DNA of 61,855 bases, the filler included. It is 14 parts of 14 records of this genome, joined end to end, with 100 filler letters (N's around TTAATTAATTAA, not from the genome) between each part and the next. Parts side by side here need not be neighbours in the genome. Positions count along the whole stretch, not along the records: positions 39,067 to 43,181 come from SRR7504441_12038; 13 more parts are not named here. The stretch is one strand, 5' to 3'. The position numbers and the translations under genes were made by a program. This document shows positions 2,060-43,181 of the stretch, piece by piece. The notes beneath the pieces were generated by a model. That model was not told where the DNA came from and made no database searches. It saw nothing but the letters and a program-made list of their open reading frames with translations. Every line of letters begins with the position of its first letter. The first letter of the stretch is position 1.

Positions 2060-4075
2060 TCACTGCTTCTCCTTCTCGGGCTCCCAATCACTCAGCTCTT
2101 GCACAAACTGTTTGAGCTTATGCTGGATCGCCCTGTACCCCTTGGTCCGCATCACCTTGGTCAACAGCCCCTGCTGGTGCTCCGCATGCTCCTTCCGGCC
2201 AGCCTCCACAGTGGTGCCTCTCTCTGGCTTGTCAGCCACCGGCTTGGCAGTGACCACTGTGCCGCCCTGGGCTATCTCCTCGGGGGTTAGCGTTGCGGCC
2301 AGCGCCTTGGCGTTCACCATGGCCTTCTCCTTGGCATGTCGCTCCTCGATCGCAGTCCGTTCCTCTGGTGTCAGCTCTTTCAACATCGCGCGCTTCTCCT
2401 CCGGTGCCATCTGCGCTAGCATCGCCGGGCTCACATGCGCCACTAGCTCGGTCCGCTCCTCGGCAGTCATCATGGCAAACCGCTGCTTGGCGGTCAGCGA
2501 AGCGCCCATAGCTCCACTCTCCTCGGGAGTCATCATGCCGAGCATCTTCTCCCTCTCGGCCGGTGTGAGCTCGACAAACATGGCCGCCTTGGCCTTGGGC
2601 TTCATCCCCGCCAGCATGGCCGGAGTGATGGCTTCGACCAGCGCGGCTCGATCCTGTGTGTGTAGTTGGTCCAACTCTGGGGTCACCCCGCTCAGCACCT
2701 CGGCATTGGAAACCACCACGTCTCCCTCAACCTCGGGTGCAGCGGGCTCCTCCTCGGCAGCCGCGGCCTCCTCCTCGGTAGCTGCAGCTTCCTCCTCGGC
2801 AGCCGCGGCCTCCTCCTCCTCGGCAGCTGCAGCTTCCTCCTCCGCTGGCTGGGCCTCGGCCCCGGCTGCATGCCCGTAGTGAGGCGGCTGCACAAGGCAC
2901 GCTACTTGCCGGGGTGCTGCAGCAGCCTTTCTTGTTTCACATAGACTGCAGTGTCCTTAACCGCACAGTCCTCCGTGAGCACCGGGATATCCAACCTGCC
3001 TGTGACGCACAGCCGGCCGCTTGCGTCGACAATCTCGCCTCGCCATTCGCAAATAATCGCCAGCTCGTAGCACACAATCCGCTTGCCTGCCCGCCAACCT
3101 CTCCCGGAGTCTGATGCCCAGGCCTGACCTTTGCGGATGCTGTTGCTGGCCGTGCCCGTGACCTCAGGCTTGTGCAGCTCGAGCCACATCTCGGTCCCAG
3201 GTGGCAACGCGCTCGGGTTGACCTTTGACACCAATTCTCAGCCTGGGATTGGCGCAGGCTATCATATGACAAATATATAGATCTGTGTGCTGCAACCTGG
3301 ACCAGCCGATCACATTCGAGCAGCTGCTTGAGTCTATCCGCTGCCCACGTGTCCAGGCAGCGCTCCTCCCAGTGGTACCCAGTATTCCACTTAGACATCC
3401 CCTGCACCACCCTGTGACGCAAGCCGCACCCAATGGGCTGCCTGCTCGGCCCCTCCAGTAGCCTCCCGCTCCACCTGCTCCACCTCCTCGGGCGCCAACG
3501 GCTTGTGCTCCACCGACGCCGGCTCCACCTCTTCCTGCGCCGCCTCCTCCTCCTGCTGCTGCTGCTGCTGCCGGCGGCTGCGTCTCCGATGCGCATAATA
3601 GTAGCCGCCGCCCATCTTTCGCTTGTCGTAATCGGCCTTCTTTTGCTGCTCGGCCCAGTAGTTCTGCAGCTGCAGCTCGTCGTTGTGCTCCAGCTGCTCC
3701 CCGATCACAGCTGCGCCCACCCGGGTGAGCGCACACCGCCCCGCCCCCCACCGGAGCTCGCAATCGGCTTGCCCCCCTTGAGCACCGCCAGATCCTCCGG
3801 CTTGAGCTTGGCCTTGTTGGCCACCAGCAGCTCCTCGGCTTGCTCGTATGCGTCGGCCAGGGGAGTCATTCCGTTGCTATTGAGCATGATCTCCTTGCCC
3901 AGGTCGCCCGCCCGCTTCTCATTGTAGTGATTGGCAAAGAACTCCAGGATGGCGCTGATCGGCTTATCCAGCCAGCTCACCGGCACCTGCCCCGACCCGC
4001 TCCCCCGGGTGGTGGGTGCCCGCGCGCCGTGAACTTGAGCGGCTTGCTCCGCGGGTACCGCAGTACCACCTTCAT
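2060..4075 (-). CDS. Activator of Hsp90 ATPase (Aha1) N-domain protein with an acidic/Ala-rich linker and M[TS]PEE-type helical repeats; about 6 short introns
   Basis: Spliced sequence reads MKVVLRYP...GYYYAH...GMSKWNTGYHWEERCLDTWAADRLKQLL...EVTGTASNSIRKGKRIVCYEL..EWRG, matching the Aha1_N pattern. One junction near 3220-3296 is uncertain. Confidence 0.7.
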
Positions 4076-4435
4076 GCCGGTGCGAGGCACGGTGCAGCAA
4101 GAGGCCGGCTGGACGACAATCAACGCGAGGTTAACAGACAAAAGTCCGTTAACAGTTGATCGGCCGAGAGCGCATGCACTGGCAGACTGGTGGCACCGCG
4201 CCCTGCACTCTCCGGCCTGGGGTTGGGGCTGATGCTGGCCGGGTAGCGCCGCCCGCCAACCCCCCCCGGTTAACTGACCCTGCCGCTGAGTGACCGGCGG
4301 CGGCAGGTCCGCGCCGGATAAACCACCTGTGGGCGTGCTTGAATACGGGCGCGTCGTGCTTTAGGCCGAACCTGTGAGACCAGCCGCGAGGAACAGCCGG
4401 GCACGTCGAGTGACCTAGCGGCGGGTAGGTTCACG

Positions 4436-6189: not shown

Positions 6190-7686
6190 CTAGCATCGCA
6201 GCCTCGCCTGCCCTCCCATCCGCTCAGCCGCCACCGCCGCACCTCCGCGCCGCCGCCACGCGTGCCTATAGCTCCGATCATAATACCTTTTAAACCAATG
6301 AGTCAGGCCATGCCAGCACCGTAAGGCGGCACCGGAGCAAGATAGCCGCCCCGCCTGCAGTGTCGCCTTCACTAATCAATTTCACTGCCCGGTCGGTGTC
6401 TTCTCGTCCCAGCCTGAAACCGCTTGCCAACGGACATGCTGGGCCACCTGGCAGCGATCTTGGCAGTAGCAGCCACCAGCTCTTCTCTCGGGCGATCCCC
6501 TGGCCACCCATTTTAATTTATTTATTATTAATAACTATGGCGGCAGCACCGTAAAGCTGCACCAAATGTCCCAACCGCTCGCCCAACGGTCGATCCAGCT
6601 CCACGCGCCACCCGCTGCCGGCCGATCAGTCCCGGAATTTCCGTTAAAGCCGTCACCGGCTCATCTGGTCCACAATTTCAGGTGGAATCCGCACGCTGGA
6701 GGGCCAATCAGGATTAAAAATAAATCGAATCGGGGCACCGGCCCAGCTGCGGGCTCTCGGCCTCGAGCCAGACCACCCGGCTCGGGTCGGTCTCGGCCTG
6801 CCAACGGACTTCAACGGACTCCAACGGACAATTCACCCAGAGTTTGGCCAGACAGTTTTCAAATAACTGCTGGCTCGGCTGATCCGGGAGCCCCAGCGCT
6901 GCCCCAACCGCTCCCCGGCCGCACTCCAACGGCAAACCGCCAAACGCCGAGCCGCGGTGCCCGGCCGCCCGCTCTAGATCGAGCACCTGAGCTCCGGCCG
7001 CGCTGAGCTTGGCGAGCACCGCGGTCTTGCCGGTCCCTGTGACTCCACCGAGCAAAGCGATCGCCCGACGGGACGTCAGCTGCTCTCGAACCTGCCCAAC
7101 CGACTGGCCCAACGGATTTTAACGGACATTTCACCCACTGCCGGTGCTGCTTGTACCCTCCGGCCAGAAGCTCGGCGCGGATCCCCCGCAGCGCCAGCAG
7201 ACCGGCCACAGTGCTGCACAAAATCCGTTAGAATCCGTTGGTTACCGTTGGTACCGGCTCCGGAGCCCACCTCGGGCGCAATACACTCCGATCTGCCCCG
7301 TCGCCTCCGCCCCCGGCCGTCAGTTCACTCACCGGCCCTTCGGCCGCCGTCCTGCGGGCCACGGCGACGATGTGCTCCGGTTCGACCCTCCGCAGGCCCT
7401 CAGCAACGGCAGCCGCGTCCCCGCGCTGCTTCCACAGTCTGCCCACCTGCCGGCCGCTCGGACCGCTCAGGGCGGGTTGCTGCCTCCGCCCGGCCGCTGT
7501 CATCCAGCACAGGCAGGTTGATCGCCCCCGGGATGTGCCTGCGGGACGTCATCACCAGGGAAGGTATCAGGGACGTCATCACCCCCGGGCGAACTCGGCC
7601 GGGCTGCGCACGTCCAGCCCCCGCACCCCGGGCCCCAGCTGCGCCACTGCCGCCGGGGCCCGCCGAATCAGCCAGTCCAGCCGCAT
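6190..7686 (-). CDS. selU: tRNA 2-selenouridine synthase (rhodanese + P-loop), bacterial-type, split by about 12 short introns
   Basis: Spliced: [99 protein letters not shown], YYD. These are the SelU/MnmH motifs in order. Confidence 0.88.
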
Positions 7687-27297: not shown

Positions 27298-28807
27298 TCA
27301 CATCCACGTACTGCATTTCCGCAAATCGAGCGCATTCGGCGGCAGCTTTGACAGACTTAACTCCAGCTCGCGCGCCGGCTCGTCGTTCCGCTCAAACACG
27401 CAGATGTGCATCTCACATTCGACAGAGGCCAGCAGCGGCTGCAGCGTGGGAAAGCAAGGCCCCGCAGCTGGCTCCTTCCACCGATCCTTCGGGGCTCGGT
27501 CGCCACAGTAATGCAAATCTGCCATGATTTGTGGCAGAAACTGGGTCCTGTCCAGTGTCCGTCATACATTTGCAGCCGGCGCCAATCAGTGCCTGAATTT
27601 ATTGCTCGCGGCAGTCGGTTGTATATCCTCGACCACGAGCAACCCTCGAGGAGCAAGCCTAGGGAACCAAAACAACATCGACCCGACCTGCGGTTAGATT
27701 CCGTTAGAGTCAGTTGGGACTAAACCATGTGCGTCGCGTGGTGCGACCCGTCGTCCACCACCAGCTTAAGCGGCGGCGCGCCTGGCACCGTGTTAAGCTC
27801 ACCTTCCTAATCGGGAAAGCGTTGTTAACCTGGCCGGTTGAGCCTCTCGCTCCAGGTTTTGTTCAGAAATTCAACGTTGCTGGCATCGCCACAGTGCAGC
27901 CGCCGTTCGGTTAGGTATTTCTGGTAGTTTTCATGCTTTGCGGCCTCGTTGACGTGAGGGTATTCCTTGGAGCAAGCCACCTCTATCGAATGAGCCTCTG
28001 CATTTGGCATGAATGCTTCATAGGCTTCAAACCCGCCGCCCAAGTAGAAGCCTGCCCCAACAGCAGCCCTAAATCATCGTTATTAGCTGTACCATTATAC
28101 ATAGTAATTACCGTATGCTATCAATACTAGTATTAACACATTATTAACACATATTGTCACCGATCTCCAGAAATAGAAATCTTGGCGTCTCCGGCCGTGA
28201 CAAGTGCCCTATTCGCCTCTGATAGAGCGTATTATAAAAGTGGCCCCACGGCCTGGCCGTTACTTTCCGTTAAATCCAACGGCCGGCACCTGCACGCCTC
28301 GCGGACTGCAGTCGGATATATGCAAGCCGTCCCGTCCCGCAGGCACCGCTCCAGGTTGGCGTTGGCCTGCCACAAGCCGCTCTCAGGCCACAGATATGTC
28401 CGTTAAAACTCCGTTACCAGCCCCTTGTCGCTGCCCGTCTTCTGGCTCAGCGCCAGGAATTCCTTCTCGCCTTCCCTCCGAGTCGTCACGCCGACCATGT
28501 TCGCCCCCACCCGCCGGCCAGGCTTGCCGACCGTCCGGCAGGACCCGCCGTCCGGATTTCCGTTGGAATTGCCGTTGGGTTTGGCCGTTACATCCCGCGC
28601 CTGCTGCCGCAGCTTGGTCTGGAGGGAGCCGACCAGGGCCTGCAGCTGCGCCACCCGGGCCGCGGCGCCGTCGTCCGTTGGGGCCAACGGCAGGGGCGTC
28701 CGTTGGTGCAGCTGGTCGCGGGCTGCGTTCTGGGCCAGCAGCAGGCACAGCCCCAGCGTGGCCAGCAGGTTGAGTCCCACTGCCACGTCGCGCAGCTCGA
28801 GCCGCAT
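27298..28807 (-). CDS. Membrane-anchored class I SAM-dependent methyltransferase-like protein, several introns
   Basis: N-terminal TM; GSDK, CRPWGHFYNTLYQ, FLEIG, HSIEVAC, LHCGDAS, LVVDDGSH, LLVVEDIQP after splicing. Confidence 0.75.
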
Positions 28808-28865: not shown

Positions 28866-30171
28866 ATGGCAGCAGCAGCAGATCTGGACAGGCGAGCCTC
28901 CGCCGCACTGCAGTACGTCGAGTCCGCGGCCCGGCAGCAGCAGCCCGGGGCGGTGGGCACAATCACCGAGATCTGCACCATGTCTAATCTCCCCGGCTCG
29001 GTGCCCGCCGCGCTGCTGGATCGGCTGGGCTCGGCGGCCAGGGTGGCCATCCACTTCCATCCGGACAGGACGGTGCACAACGGCAATTCGGTGGTGGGCT
29101 CGATGCTCGAATCGGGCACCGTCCAAAACCAGTTCGAGACGTTGATTTCCAACGGACGGCTCGACCCGGACCCGACCGGCCAGCGCGCCGGGTGGGAGGC
29201 CAACCTGTTCGGCGGGGCGTACAGCAACGCCCCGCCGGCTGAGCGGCCAAAGTATGGCGCGATGGCGCTGCTCGGCCAGGCGGACGGCCCATCGCCGCGG
29301 TTCGGCTCGTGCTATTTCGTGTTGAACCCGGAGGTGTGTGGCGGTTAGTGGCGGTTATTTCAACGGTCGGCAGGTGACGCACCGGAGCACGTTCTGCTTC
29401 GGCGACTCGCACACAAACCCAACGGTCCGGGGCACAAGCAGCACCTGGGAGCCGGTGATTTCCAACGGCTTTCCAACGGCTTTCCAACGGAATTTAGGTG
29501 CTCGCGGAGCTGCTGAGGGAGAGTTTCACCCGCGACGAGGCGGTGCAGCCAATGCTGTCGGGTCAAAGTCCGTTAAATGTCGTTAGGTGGGGGTGCGCCC
29601 GTTGCGGCCTGCGGGGCTGGTGCGCCGGATGAGTGGGCTGCTGGAGGGCCCGCTGGAGCTGCTCTGGAATCAGCATCCCGCGGCACGGAACCTCGATCAC
29701 TATGTCGAAGCGCAGGTGCTGCCACTATGCTTTAGGCTATACAATAGTGTATTATATAGTATGTAGTATATTATTATGGCGGGGGTAGGTGCATGGCGAG
29801 GTCCGGCTGGATCGGGACGTGGCAGCGCTGGTGGCCGACCCGTCGTTCCAGGTTAACACCGCCTCCCCGATTAGGAAGGTGGCGCTTAACACGCTGCTCA
29901 GGGCACAGAAGCCGGCGAGCAGATGGCCGCGCTAGCTGACCGGTGCGGCTATTGCCGTTAATTCCAACGGAATTCAACGGGCAGATATGGCGTGCTGCTG
30001 CAGTGGCATCCGGGTTCTGCTCTGCTTGTGAACCAAGTGCTCAGTTTGATTTGATTTATTAATAATAATATTTAGTATTAACAGAGATTATTCTGCAGGT
30101 GCCGTCGGACTTTCGAGGGCCTCAGATGCCAAACATGGCAAAGATGGTGCCCAACCGACTAATCTGTGGCC
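28866..30171 (+). CDS. DUF3626-family protein (bacterial-like), at least 7 introns, 3' partial
   Basis: RVAIHFHPDR, QFET.ISNG, WE..LFGGAY, RPKYGA, GPSPRFGSCYFVL, RSTFCFGDS, LDHYVEAQVHG.V.L..DV..LVADPSF, VPSDFRGP. Confidence 0.8.
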
Positions 30172-39066: not shown

Positions 39067-41700
39067 GCTGCTGCTGCTGCTGCTGCTGCTGCTACTACTA
39101 CTACTATACTATGGTATACTATACCTGCCCCAGGGCTCAGGTACGACGAAGGCCATGCTGACAACAGACACAGCAAACACCAAGGAGGCCACCATCAACG
39201 GAATTAGGCTATTCCAGTTGACTTGTGTTCGTGATCGCACAAAGCTCTGCAGGTTTTCCTGGTCGATCGATTCGTCGATCAGACCAGCAAGCCTGTCATA
39301 GCATCGCATATACCAGGTTAGATAAGCTAGCAACGAGCCCGAGATCACTGCGGCCGCCAATGGAACCGAGAAGAACTTGCTGCAACGGCTGTCCCGCAGA
39401 GGCGACGTCCTCTTGATACTAAGCCAGACCAAAGGCAGCTGTGCGGCGCAGGTGACGCCCAGTATGATATAAGTCTCTATTCCAGCTTGGTAACACATTT
39501 GGCACATGTCGGCATCAAGGCCCTTGTTGCACAGATGGCTGATCTGCTGCCACTCGCCGGTGCCCTCGTGCCCGACATCGACACATGCACCGTACGAGTT
39601 CACGCACTGCTGGTATTGTCCGGTCGGGAGGCCCCGGGTGGTCTGGGCGAAGCTGTCTGCAAAACGCAGTAGAATGGTCAGCATACATTGTACTATACTG
39701 TGTACTACTATACTACTATGCCGTGTAGCTATATACTATCGAGCACCTGCGGAGACGCAGTAGAACGCGAAGACAAGCCCACCGATAGTTAGATCGTACG
39801 GCACTGTCACTGCCAGCTCTTCAGTCCCGGTGCTCAGCACTCCGCCGGTGAGGCTTTCACACCTTGTAACCCCGCAGTTAGCACTACTGTGTACTACTAT
39901 ACTGGATACTACTGTATACTACTATACACGCTCTCACACATTATCAACCTGCAGTTAGCATACATTGTACTGTATACTATTATACACACCTTAGCCCGGT
40001 GTACGAGAACACCCCCCCGGCGTTGACCCCGGCGTTGACGCTCATCCCGTTGATACCGGTAACCGAACTGCTCTGCACCACCACCGCTGCAGTCCTACGC
40101 TCGGCCGTGCCGTTCCGCAAGCTGACAAGACCTTGAGCCGACCGGCGGGCAGCGGTGCAGATCTCTGCGGGGCACCACGCGGCACCCCCCCCAGTTGGGA
40201 TGGAGGGGTCGATCGCACAGGCGTAGTTGGTGTCGTCGCAAAGGTTGGTGCAGTCAGGGTTGTTGGCCCGGTACTGTGAGGGTTCCCTGCACCTTGATAC
40301 AGAGCTTAGTATATGGTATACCGTATGCATATAGTGTTACACTATATATAGGATTTAGCTTAGCATGGCAGCTGGTCGTAGCACCATTCAGTGTTGGTGT
40401 TGATCGCGCATTCCATGTGAGGATCAAACGACCTGCACAGGCCGCTCAGCCACAGACGACGCCGGCCTGGCCGCTCTCAGCCACAATCACCTGCAGGTTT
40501 CAACTTCGGTCGACTGGTCCGTAATCGACGCCGCGGTGAAACTCACATCGTTCTGAAGATCCGACACGAACTGATCCGTTACAATGTAAGCAGCCACGCT
40601 CTCCAGTGCGGAGGCCGCCTTCACGTCGCTCCGAGTGGTCAACGTAAAAGTCACAACCCCCGATGCCGTTGAGCTCGTGATGGTGACGTCCTTGGCCGTA
40701 CATACACTGACCCCAGTCCAACCGCACACGCTGCCCGGAATAATAATGACAACAACGATTAAATAATAAAAATAATAAGCACCTGCCAGCCTTCGCCGCA
40801 ACCACTGCCTTGAACTTCGCCTGGGCGGCTTCGTTGAAGGCACCGGCGGTCATGCCAGCTAATACCATTATAATCCGTGCGGCAACGGCTTCCGTGTCGG
40901 AAAAGTAGACCTGGGCGGTCGGAAGGAACGTCTGAGCTGTTCGTCTGGTGTCGAGATTTGTCTCGACAGCCGCGTTGCAGCTGAGTTTCAGGCTCATGCT
41001 GTACGGCATGCCCTGGACGGAGAAAGCAACGGCAAAGCAGCTGTTGTCGCTGAAGACTCCGCCCCACAGGTCGGCGCTGGCATCGAGCCCGGCGCACTCA
41101 GCCGTGCTGGAGTATTCCTGGAGCGCGAGCGTGCGCGTATGACAGTTCACCTAGACACACACAGCTCAGTACATGTAAACAGTGCATGCATTGTATGCAG
41201 TGTATTAGCTTAGTATGTAGTATATTAGCTTAGTACCTTGACACAAAGCTTGATGGAGGCCGGCCTGAACGCCAGCACCTGGCTGACCGCCCCATACTGC
41301 CACGCCAGCTCTGAGTAACTCTGGGTGGCCACGCTGCAGGTCGTGTCGTACTCATACAGAATCAACCCAGCTGTCTGTAGGTATGCAACGTTCTTTGTGA
41401 TCATGTCCCCGAGGTACGCGTAAGTAAGCACCCCTAGATCAAACGCCTTACTGTCCCAGTCCACTACAAACCCCGAGCCCGGCCCAGCCATGCTCGTCGC
41501 TCTAAGCTCCATCCCACCGGAGGCCCAGGGCAACGCCGAGATGAACCCAAAGTCCGTTGAGGCTCCATACACCAACGCCAGCCCGCACGCTAATAAACTA
41601 ACCACAGCCAGCACCCCAACCAGCAGCCGGAATCGCACTCGAAGCCAGTCGAACCTCCGGCTGCCCAGCTTGGCGATCCCCCCACACAGGTCATTCCCGG
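39067..41700 (-). CDS. Multi-pass membrane protein with Cys-rich extracellular region, about 8 introns, runs off the contig
   Basis: ORF pieces 41225, 40500, 39980 and 39109 are joinable in frame through GT-AG introns, with several TM helices. It is in frame with the upstream LCAT-like ORF, so the gene boundary is unclear. Confidence 0.55.
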
Positions 41701-43181
41701 CACAGAGAGAGCTGCCCCAGCGCTTCTGGGCGGCGGCTGCAGCACCGTCGATCCCCTGCGCGGCTACCTGGTGCTCCTGCGGGCTACAGAGGCCCAGAAT
41801 GCCCCTGAGCAGCTGCAGCATACGAGGGTCGGATGAGACGCTGCGGTGGTCGCAATTTGGGAGCTCGTGCACTTGCACGCGGCAGTCAGTCGAAGCCCAG
41901 GTGGCTGCGTGCCGCAGGCTCCGGTACGAGACGGTGCCGTCGCCGCTTGCAAACACCTGCGCCGAGTCGTCAGGTCGGGTCTGCGGTATCTGCGCGGTCT
42001 CGTAGCCCACTCCGTCCACGCACACCAAACCGTCAAAATCGCCCGAGCTGTCAAGCTCAAAACAAGACCGCAGCGCATGCTCATCCACAGGCCCCCCTGT
42101 GCACAGTGCCGCGGGGTGTTGAATAAACAGCGTCCTCGGTGTCGGCATATTGATCCCATAAATAGCAGTCACTCGTCCCACGGGCGGCGGGCACCGATGG
42201 CAGTCCGCCAACCCCCCGGCCCCGTCCGGCACCTGCCAGATCTCCGGGCGCTGCTCGAACATTCCCTCAAACTCCCGGAGCGCAAACGGACTTGCCGGGC
42301 TCCAGGCGTGGTTGCCCATGGTACACGAGTTGTATTGCGCCGGCTGGCCGCCGGTGTGCTGGGCCAACGCGTGCTCCGACGGGCTGAACCATGTCCCGGG
42401 CTCGCACACCTTGCGCCCGCAGTTAGCATACACTGTGTGCTAACACTACCCTAGCCCGCAGTTAGCTAGTACAGTATAGCATATAGTGTATATATATGTA
42501 CTACTACACTATGCTATACTATTGTACTAGCGTCAGGCTCGCACCGTCAGGCTGAAGCGGAGGTCGATCCGGGCGGCTTGGACTTTGCCCGAAGCATTGG
42601 ATGAGCTGTACGAGTCGTCCTGCGAGGTGTGGATGATCAGGTCGGTGCACACGATACTACTACACTAGTCTATAGCATTGCTCTACTATACCTGCGAGGT
42701 GTGGATGATCTGGTCGAGCCGCCGCCGCAGTGCCGCCCGGCGAGTGAAGGCGAGCGGCACCTCAATCTGCCCGGCGCAGTGCCCCGACTCGGCCCACTCG
42801 GCACTCGGGATTGTGTGGCTCCCAGATGCTTCCACATATCCGTCATGTAACAGCGAGATCTTGAGGCTGATGCAGTCGGCATCGGGAGCCAACGAGTAGC
42901 TGATACACTCAGCAAACGGACTGTTGCTGTGGAAGTCGAGCGATTGAAGGCAGGCCACCCTTGTGTCGTTGACCTTGACCCGCAGACCGAGCTCAGCGGC
43001 GGGCTCGTTGACATTGAGATCGTGCAACCGTCCGATGAAGACTCTACAGGAGATCGCCTCTCGCAGATACACAAACGGCAAATCTAACCCGTCGTGCCAA
43101 TCCCCAACGGGCAGTAAATACTGGCCGACTGGCACGCTCCGGAGGATGGTGAGCATCTCGGCCTGTGAGAAGAGCATGTCT
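41701..43181 (-). CDS. LCAT/PDAT-like acyltransferase, C-terminal part (5' partial), 2 introns
   Basis: PPPVGRVTAIYGINMPT, SGDGTVSYRSL, ELPNCDHRSV (catalytic Asp/His region). Confidence 0.75.

Follow-up and report, generated by a model that had tools for sequence, protein, structure and literature searches.

The window analysed here is a stretch of 61,855 nucleotides (62 kb) in which 14 short contigs are joined with N spacers between them; shared word families suggest that all 14 come from a single organism. The contig at 39067-43181 (4115 nt, GC content 0.574) carries a partial gene interrupted by nine complete putative introns (I1-I9) and a partial one (I10), all on the minus strand. Most of these, together with Di4, an intron of a DUF3626 gene on a second contig, belong to a family of related AT-rich sequences, which occurs in both orientations and in part carries duplications of the exon sequence at the splice junctions. 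Neither the junction duplications nor the two orientations figure in the original prediction. The features are collected in Table 1.

Table 1. The host gene, its introns and the family member on a second contig; positions count along the whole window.
Feature	Position	Strand	Description
Partial gene	39067-43181	minus	Open at both contig ends; 10 exons, 9 complete introns and 1 partial intron
I1	42620-42691	minus	72 nt, sense class; 47-nt filler starting GTATAGTA, then a 25-nt copy of the upstream exon end giving the 3' splice site
I1 duplication, exon copy	42692-42716	minus	One base apart from the intron copy: CAGATC in the exon, CTGATC in the intron
I2	42410-42544	minus	135 nt; first 9 nt are a copy of the downstream exon start, next 6 nt a copy of the upstream exon end
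I3	41151-41236	minus	86 nt, antisense class with TACTA words; contains a 20-nt unit repeated 2.2 times
I4	40731-40782	minus	52 nt, T-rich; outside the family
I5	40433-40490	minus	58 nt, GC 0.69; outside the family
I6	40293-40384	minus	92 nt, antisense class; two short palindromes
I7	39949-39989	minus	41 nt, sense class
I8	39863-39939	minus	77 nt, sense class; 35 nt of its 3' junction region recur in its 5' junction region
I9	39657-39746	minus	90 nt, sense class; exon end copied at the intron 3' end
I10, partial	39087-39124	minus	Sense class; starts GTATAGTA like I1, after ..GGGGCAG
Di4, intron 4 of the DUF3626 gene	29716-29788	plus	Family member on another contig

Excision of the nine GT..AG segments results in one frame of 1117 amino acids (aa) with no stop codon, while the other two frames contain 32 and 35 stops. 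The exons have a GC content of 0.606 against 0.427 in the introns, and the GC content at third codon positions (GC3) of the joined exons is 0.739. The original prediction had placed at least eight introns on this contig; of the eight listed, seven are exact GT..AG segments and the eighth is the partial I10; I4 and I5 had been missed. I7, the 9-nt stretch 39940-39948 and I8 could instead be one intron of 127 nt, the frame being kept either way, and towards the contig end I10 turns into (TAG)n and (CAG)n.

The gene product is a 1117-aa piece of a membrane protein that is distantly related to the LCAT family. A full HMMER search with the largest exon found 217 homologues at E<=0.001, and Pfam detected LCAT (PF02450) in three of the seven homologues scanned; on the window's own exons of this gene Pfam gave no match above the cut-off. 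A word-index search for longer proteins found no match, and Rfam found none across the window. All ten homologues that were looked up come from metagenome assemblies. The protein family (proteins P0001-P0160) is known only from marine metagenome assemblies, and its members comprise an N-terminal domain and an LCAT-like core (SGDGTV..Y.SLR, ELPGCDHRG), then a membrane segment, a middle part that is variable and rich in cysteine, and a conserved membrane part at the C-terminus. Exon 7 contains a perfect, in-frame 12-nt tandem duplication at 40015-40038 of the minus strand (VNAG VNAG), which implies that short tandem duplications are recent in the host gene. On another contig, an ABCG transporter has its best named relatives in oomycetes and brown algae (38-40% identity), and one metagenome protein is 59% identical to it; a taxonomic call reached Eukaryota only, and the sequencing runs with traces of the contig at 39067-43181 are marine. 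With moderate confidence, these relationships point to an uncultured marine stramenopile-like protist as the host.

According to the restored frame and the colinearity of homologues, the segments behave as introns, and they are presumably removed by splicing. At the site of I3 (aa 579) the homologues P0104, P0012, P0024 and P0157 are aligned to the spliced product without a gap, and at the site of I9 (aa 940) P0124 and P0001 cross the junction with a 3-residue gap beside it. Small contigs from four other studies match the structure of the host contig at 97-100% identity: X2 record 8 spans all of I2 with one substitution and a 3-nt deletion, X3 record 9 runs across the I9 donor with no difference, X2 record 6 crosses the I6 acceptor, and X1 record 2 covers 40750-41172. 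No intron-skipping joint is present among these small contigs, which cover parts of the stretch only. Four DNA runs contain 0.05-0.06 of the sampled words of the stretch. A generic intron finder that joins open reading frames (ORFs) returned 14,141 candidates and was uninformative in this GC-rich DNA.

The likeness of the introns goes beyond composition. Twenty-one 12-mers are common to more than one of ten introns, against a mean of 0.35 in dinucleotide shuffles (maximum 7 in 500 shuffles) and of 3.7 under an order-3 Markov model trained on the introns (maximum 16 in 300 simulations). A common block of at least 12 nt is found in 8 of the 45 intron pairs, against a mean of 0.23 (maximum 2). 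The sharing of 10-mers and of 12-mers is above all 300 order-3 simulations; the 8-mer sharing is reached by 26 of the 300, which means that the order-3 model nearly explains the 8-mers and that the family signal sits in long blocks. All the shared blocks quoted in the original prediction are present, and the 12-mer counts bear out that such blocks exceed composition-matched shuffles. Four copies of GCTAACTGC are found, every one in these introns (expected 0.69; none of 100 shuffles reaches 4), AGTACAATGTATGCT occurs in I9 and I7, and a 19-nt block containing TATAGTAGTACACAGTA is common to I9 and I8. TAGTAGTA occurs nine times in the window, always on the minus strand of the contig at 39067-43181, i.e. 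the sense strand of the gene. In pairwise local alignments the z-scores against shuffles rise to 10.9, and several introns at non-homologous sites are significantly alike (nine members at nine sites in two genes). The other introns of the organism are GC-rich, T-rich or made of other words. The 19-nt shared block has no match in the genome-contig and viral-contig collections. X2 record 4, a small contig of 199 nt from a different marine sample, has a gapped match to 39883-39921 alone, beyond which its sequence is different and of the TACTATTGT type; it might represent another family member at a different place in this genome or in that of a relative.

The family members lie in two orientations. 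I1, I2, I7, I8, I9 and I10 are mutually alike in the sense direction (z 4.1-10.9, the pair I1-I7 being outside the 30 pairs listed), and so are I3 and I6 (z 8.6). Across these two groups the likeness is antisense: I6 and I8 score 6.8 in antisense and 1.9 in sense, I3 and I10 score 6.2 and 0.8, respectively. Di4 and I3 are likewise antisense to each other (9.5, against 0.2 in sense), and Di4 resembles I2 (6.9) and I1 (5.5) in sense. The word counts split in the same way, with TAGTA in the sense group and TACTA in I3 and I6. Thus the claim that the same TAGTA filler runs through all of the introns holds for a shared family, two of the eight members claimed being inverted. The presence of members in both orientations implies that an RNA-level process acting in the sense direction only, such as reverse splicing, does not fit.

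Similar filler had also been proposed on the DUF3626 contig. Positions 184/185 of the DUF3626 profile abut across Di4, and since the flanking exons match the profile up to 184 and from 185, Di4 is well supported as an intron and is a real family member; the other proposed site, 28069-28160 on the minus strand, is a plausible intron that is weakly similar to the family (z at most 4.8). I4 and I5 are unrelated to the family in pairwise alignments. I5 consists largely of two copies of TGTGGCTGAG(A)GCGGCC and is duplication-like in spite of being unrelated to the AT-rich family; its donor CCTGCAG/GT resembles its acceptor CCTGTGCAG/GT (the slash marks the junction).

Exon sequence is duplicated at several of the junctions. 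Matches between the two junctions of an intron were counted in register within 3 nt, with at most one mismatch and the core AG/GT excluded. By this count, five of the nine introns have at least 8 matches (22, 12, 12, 9 and 8; I1 has 22, I8 and I9 have 12 each, I3 has 9), and the duplications extend up to 25 nt. None of 135 exonic GT..AG decoys reaches 8. Among mismatched donor/acceptor pairs, 3 of 56 do, reflecting the 3' module that the introns share. None of the seven introns of the DUF3626 gene reaches 8, the maximum there being 6, which implies that junction repeats are no general property of the splice sites of this organism. In I1, the final 25 nt of the upstream exon are repeated at the intron end (42619-42644 versus 42691-42716, 25/26 identical, 96%); the base that differs, CAGATC to CTGATC, lies 17 nt from the acceptor and may be a branch-site-like change. 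In I9 the exon end TTCTACTGCGTCTCCGCAG is copied as TTCTACTGCGTTTTGCAG at the intron 3' end, and in I3 TGTGTCAAG/GT is copied as TGTGTCTAG/GT at the same place. The opening 9 nt of I2, GTGCGAGCC, copy the downstream exon start GTGTGCGAGCC, and in I8 the 35 nt about the donor match the 35 nt about the acceptor. For I1, I3 and I9 the acceptor therefore comes from the duplication, for I2 and I8 the donor. The donors of the introns with a duplicated exon end are the unusual GTATAG or GTACTA, while most other introns of the organism begin with GTG. Splicing would take out the insert together with one copy of the duplication, leaving the coding sequence as it was before insertion. The duplications vary in length from 8 to 25 nt, so that no fixed length of the 3-9 bp type is seen.

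Several introns additionally bear marks of copying. I2 begins with a copy of its downstream flank, followed directly by a copy of its upstream flank, and its interior holds a palindrome of about 67 nt (42465-42531), two GCTAACTGCGGGC modules and the direct repeat D8. A 35-nt unit composed of an intron 3' end and the start of the following exon is repeated in tandem at 39863-39989. This unit consists of the branch module GCTAACTGCRGG..AAK and the approximately 11 nt that follow it, and has three copies, two of them in tandem at 39853-39968 and the third at 42399-42436 (copies of the corresponding repeat D3 are at 39856-39891, 39933-39968 and 42401-42436); the exon parts of the three units fall in different reading frames. 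Tandem arrays are found inside I3, I8, I9 and I10. The junction copies account for only 9-35 nt, and the intron bodies are AT-rich filler (GC 0.34-0.47). An intron body that copies the adjacent exon, as in the model of AGGT tandem duplication, was not found.

The inserts, 41-135 nt long, have no common termini in alignments and share blocks only. According to the inverted-repeat search of the introns, long inverted arms are restricted to I2, which folds better than its shuffles (z -1.97, 11/200); the other nine introns tested have z-scores between -1.27 and +1.30. Hairpins or terminal inverted repeats were consequently rejected as a general feature of the family, only I2 being palindromic and one of ten having a z below -1.5. 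The original prediction saw no terminal inverted repeats, which agrees with the lack of shared termini and of general inverted repeats but overlooks the long palindrome of I2. The view that nothing transposon-like is visible does not survive, since five of the nine introns have target-duplication-like repeats of 8-25 nt. The mode it suggested instead, templated or iterative insertion, agrees with the flank copies of I2, the tandem 35-nt unit and the internal arrays, but strictly local copying from neighbouring introns, which formed part of it, finds no support: one of the best matches, that of I3 with Di4, is antisense and spans two contigs, and within the gene the decay of similarity with distance that such copying called for is absent (Spearman -0.14, p 0.49, 28 pairs).

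The spliced product was compared by tblastn with ten metagenome loci of 31-38% identity. Single-frame matches extend over q1-557 in L001, q171-624 in L002 and q367-696 in L009, and indicate that these relatives are uninterrupted at the equivalents of aa 163, 188 and 579. With the homologues that cross aa 940, distant relatives without the intron thus exist for four intron positions. Two loci of the data set that also contains L001, namely L009 and L010, are interrupted elsewhere, near q233, q330, q427, q522 and q696, which implies that this data set is genomic DNA and that intron positions vary between lineages in this gene family. Near the position of I4 (aa 701), where an old intron common to both was considered, an interruption of L009 with approximate borders is off by about 6-7 codons. 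No AT-rich family member was found in 48 kb of the relatives' loci. L009, which is 31% identical, has at 347-391 a 45-nt intron, the 3' half of which is an 18/20 copy of the next exon (0 of 1000 shuffles match); it looks as if made by duplication of coding sequence, at a place where the host gene has no intron.

Eight of the nine family members lie within one 4-kb gene. Uninterrupted frames of 1133, 1009 and 688 aa are present on other contigs, and a family profile search found no match in the other 12 contigs. Neither reverse transcriptase nor transposase is encoded among the 18 long ORFs scanned. The intron-forming process, whatever its nature, is concentrated in particular genes. In the DUF3626 gene (28866-30171, plus strand), about seven putative introns measuring 25-73 nt are packed into 1.3 kb; at two of them profile positions abut (100/102 and 184/185), and the gene model, the borders of which are provisional, loses the frame after the third intron.

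We propose that these are young, lineage-specific introns that arose by DNA-level insertion at breaks, with duplication of the flanks and templated copying from existing members, an account to which we give an even chance of being right. Each intron would derive from a related AT-rich sequence put into the DNA of the gene in either orientation, and every insertion would duplicate 8-25 nt of the target, so that the mRNA would remain unchanged once the insert and one copy were spliced out. Two arrangements may be distinguished. In I1, I3 and I9 the donor (GTATAG.. or GTACTA..) would come with the insert and the acceptor (..CAG) from the duplicated exon end; in I2 and I8 it would be the duplicated exon start that gives the donor (GTGYG..), the branch site and acceptor (GCTAAC..AAG) belonging to the insert. 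The inserts most likely come from break repair with template switching, in which a polymerase would copy the flanks of the break as well as existing family members; later slippage would lengthen the inserts, and no transposase with fixed ends would be involved. Copying during repair is favoured by the lack of common ends, the varying duplication lengths, the flank copies of I2, the tandem junction unit, the arrays inside introns, the 12-nt duplication of exon 7 and the 45-nt intron of L009, marks of the kind reported for the new introns of Daphnia (PMC4202315). That the process is still active, as the original prediction supposed, is suggested by the single duplication of I1 that is 25/26 identical. 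A more far-reaching form of the proposal, which we advance only tentatively, is that introns beget introns without a transposase: AT-rich members would template the repair of breaks in transcribed DNA, in either orientation, and a long target duplication would supply a splice site.

Several observations weigh against the break-repair account. Splicing itself is deduced from frame and colinearity. Alignment is poor around aa 163 and 188, which are therefore only approximate positions, and relatives that are only 31-38% identical leave room for intron loss on their side. Four of the nine introns have no junction repeat above the decoy level, and duplications of 18-25 nt exceed the 4-12 bp described for the break-repair introns of Daphnia (PMC4202315). 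The palindrome of I2 would also fit a foldback element. Similarity within the gene does not decay with distance and one close member is on another contig, which a trans-acting mobile element explains equally well. The family, finally, rests on only 9-10 introns from the 62 kb in hand.

A non-autonomous mobile element, i.e. an Introner in the strict sense, which inserts in either orientation with target duplications of variable length, is the most obvious competitor, and we consider it less likely. Such an element could be a short one that uses non-long-terminal-repeat (non-LTR) target-primed reverse transcription, with its variable duplications, 5' truncation and a TACTA simple-repeat tail, or a decayed foldback element, of which I2 would be the fullest copy. 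In its favour are the spread of the family over unrelated sites on two contigs and in the two orientations, the target-duplication-like repeats around five of nine introns, the recruitment of one splice site from the duplication in either arrangement, as described for Introners (PMC9860276), and a common 3' module (..ATGTATGCTRAC..) with varying 5' parts. The palindrome of I2 and the lack of distance decay, one of the closest pairs spanning two contigs, agree with it as well, and Introner families that are non-LTR-derived or of unknown mechanism are reported, as are tens of introns within a single gene (PMC12130899). However, the members have no common termini, the duplications are 8-25 nt instead of the 3-9 bp given for known families (PMC9860276), and the folding z-scores reveal no structure in eight of nine introns. 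No copies were found outside introns, the profile search of the other 12 contigs being empty, and eight of nine members crowd into one 4-kb gene while long genes elsewhere are uninterrupted. The scrambled flank copies of I2 and the tandem 35-nt junction unit are unlike a clean insertion, and the 18 long ORFs scanned offer no enzyme for it.

It is improbable that the introns are older, ordinary ones, the likeness of which comes from an AT-rich, slippage-prone composition, together with gene conversion between introns of the one gene and later local tandem duplications. The introns do consist in part of short units in tandem array, the order-3 model explains much of the 8-mer sharing, GTA/TAC words of a similar kind are found in AT-rich intergenic DNA of the window, four introns are without junction repeats, and the relatives compared are distant. 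Against this, the 10-mer and 12-mer sharing beats every order-3 simulation, members are inverted and on another contig, the remaining introns of the organism are of other composition, and at the positions that correspond to aa 163, 188, 579 and 940 distant relatives read through in one frame; an exon copy that is 25/26 identical within I1 cannot be old. Hardly credible is the view that the segments are not introns at all but artefacts of metagenome assembly, or unspliced low-complexity insertions in a decaying gene. The contig stems from a fragmented assembly, was found in no RNA run and ends in a microsatellite, but nine GT..AG excisions restore a 1117-aa frame with a GC3 of 0.739, homologues are colinear with the spliced product, and the junctions recur at 97-100% identity in contigs of four other studies.

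Compared to known systems, the family is similar to the Introners of marine algae (Micromonas, Aureococcus, Chrysochromulina, Symbiodinium and others) in that similar introns of lower GC content than the exons are found at unrelated sites, that insertion occurs at the DNA level in a marine host, and that the insert carries one splice site and the target duplication the other, in either arrangement, with the mRNA unchanged (PMC9860276, PMC11282704). The known families have fixed-length duplications of 3-9 bp (PMC9860276), and often terminal inverted repeats and near-identical full-length copies, unlike the variable duplications of 8-25 nt, the unshared ends, the block-confined similarity and the clustering in one gene seen here. 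A fixed short duplication is a property of many Introner families and, according to the same source, no requirement for all (PMC9860276). An intron family with variable duplications of 8-25 nt was not described in the literature searched; the per-family supplementary tables of PMC9860276 and PMC12130899 (TARA metagenome genomes), which could hold one, were outside the comparison.

New introns of Daphnia pulex have the end of the adjacent exon as a direct repeat at the intron's opposite end (4-12 bp, 33 cases), 61% of them have internal repeats, and they are attributed to staggered breaks (PMC4202315). The introns described here are similar in their opposite-end exon repeats, frequent internal direct repeats, short length and lineage specificity (PMC4202315). 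They differ in the length of the repeats, and the inserts of Daphnia, as far as that account goes, are not described as one family in two orientations; polymorphism, on the other hand, is shown directly there (PMC4202315). As in the tandem duplication of exon segments containing AGGT (PMC3443670), a duplicated junction gives a splice site, and the 35-nt unit at 39863-39989 and the intron of L009 at 347-391 fit that model directly, but the bulk of each intron in the present family is AT-rich filler not derived from the neighbouring exon. New introns that resemble others of the genome, sometimes of the same gene, are also expected from transposition by reverse splicing and known from fungal introner-like elements (PMC3443670). 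These are sense copies without duplication of the flanks, whereas in the present case two members run antisense and flank duplications accompany five introns.

Templated filler DNA is formed at repaired breaks, in plant end joining and in joining by polymerase theta, and consists of direct or inverted copies of nearby sequence and of scrambled flanks, in variable length, usually of some tens of bases. The introns of this family share with it the copies of nearby sequence in either orientation, the scrambled flanks and the variable length. To our knowledge, filler DNA is not known as a source of intron families.

Two further observations concern the remaining contigs. A second word family, AACGG/CCGTT, makes up 20 clusters across the window, where order-3 simulations give 5.6 +/- 2.2 (maximum 15 in 100 runs). 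The clusters are spread over 10 of the 14 contigs; near-identical pieces recur between contigs, and many clusters are in GT..AG-bounded stretches of 23-55 nt in either orientation, e.g. 6798-6836, 7104-7138 and 7214-7254 on the minus strand and 28398-28420, 29455-29497 and 29943-29984 on the plus strand. Two of the clusters are candidate introns in the DUF3626 gene model, roughly fitting the Pfam match; 6798-6836 reads through in frame and is hence only a candidate intron. The clusters might represent tiny introns of one family, or else a binding-site motif. Another gene (2850-4435, minus strand) has apparent small introns with putative borders, which are GC-rich or mixed and without the TAGTA type.

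The origin of new spliceosomal introns is an old question with two supported answers, Introners and error-prone repair of breaks as in Daphnia. The locus unites marks of both: a family in two orientations, long duplications of variable length, one of them nearly unmutated, and scrambled copies of the flanks. A duplication that is 25/26 identical would be very recent, and the states before and after insertion should therefore be recoverable from population data. If the mobile-element explanation is true, the family would be an Introner of unusual insertion chemistry, hosted by an uncultured marine stramenopile. If repair is responsible, intron families would spread without any enzyme encoded by an element. 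If, moreover, introns beget introns, certain genes would fill with introns while their neighbours stay intron-free, and the family would be a self-propagating, repair-driven counterpart of Introners.

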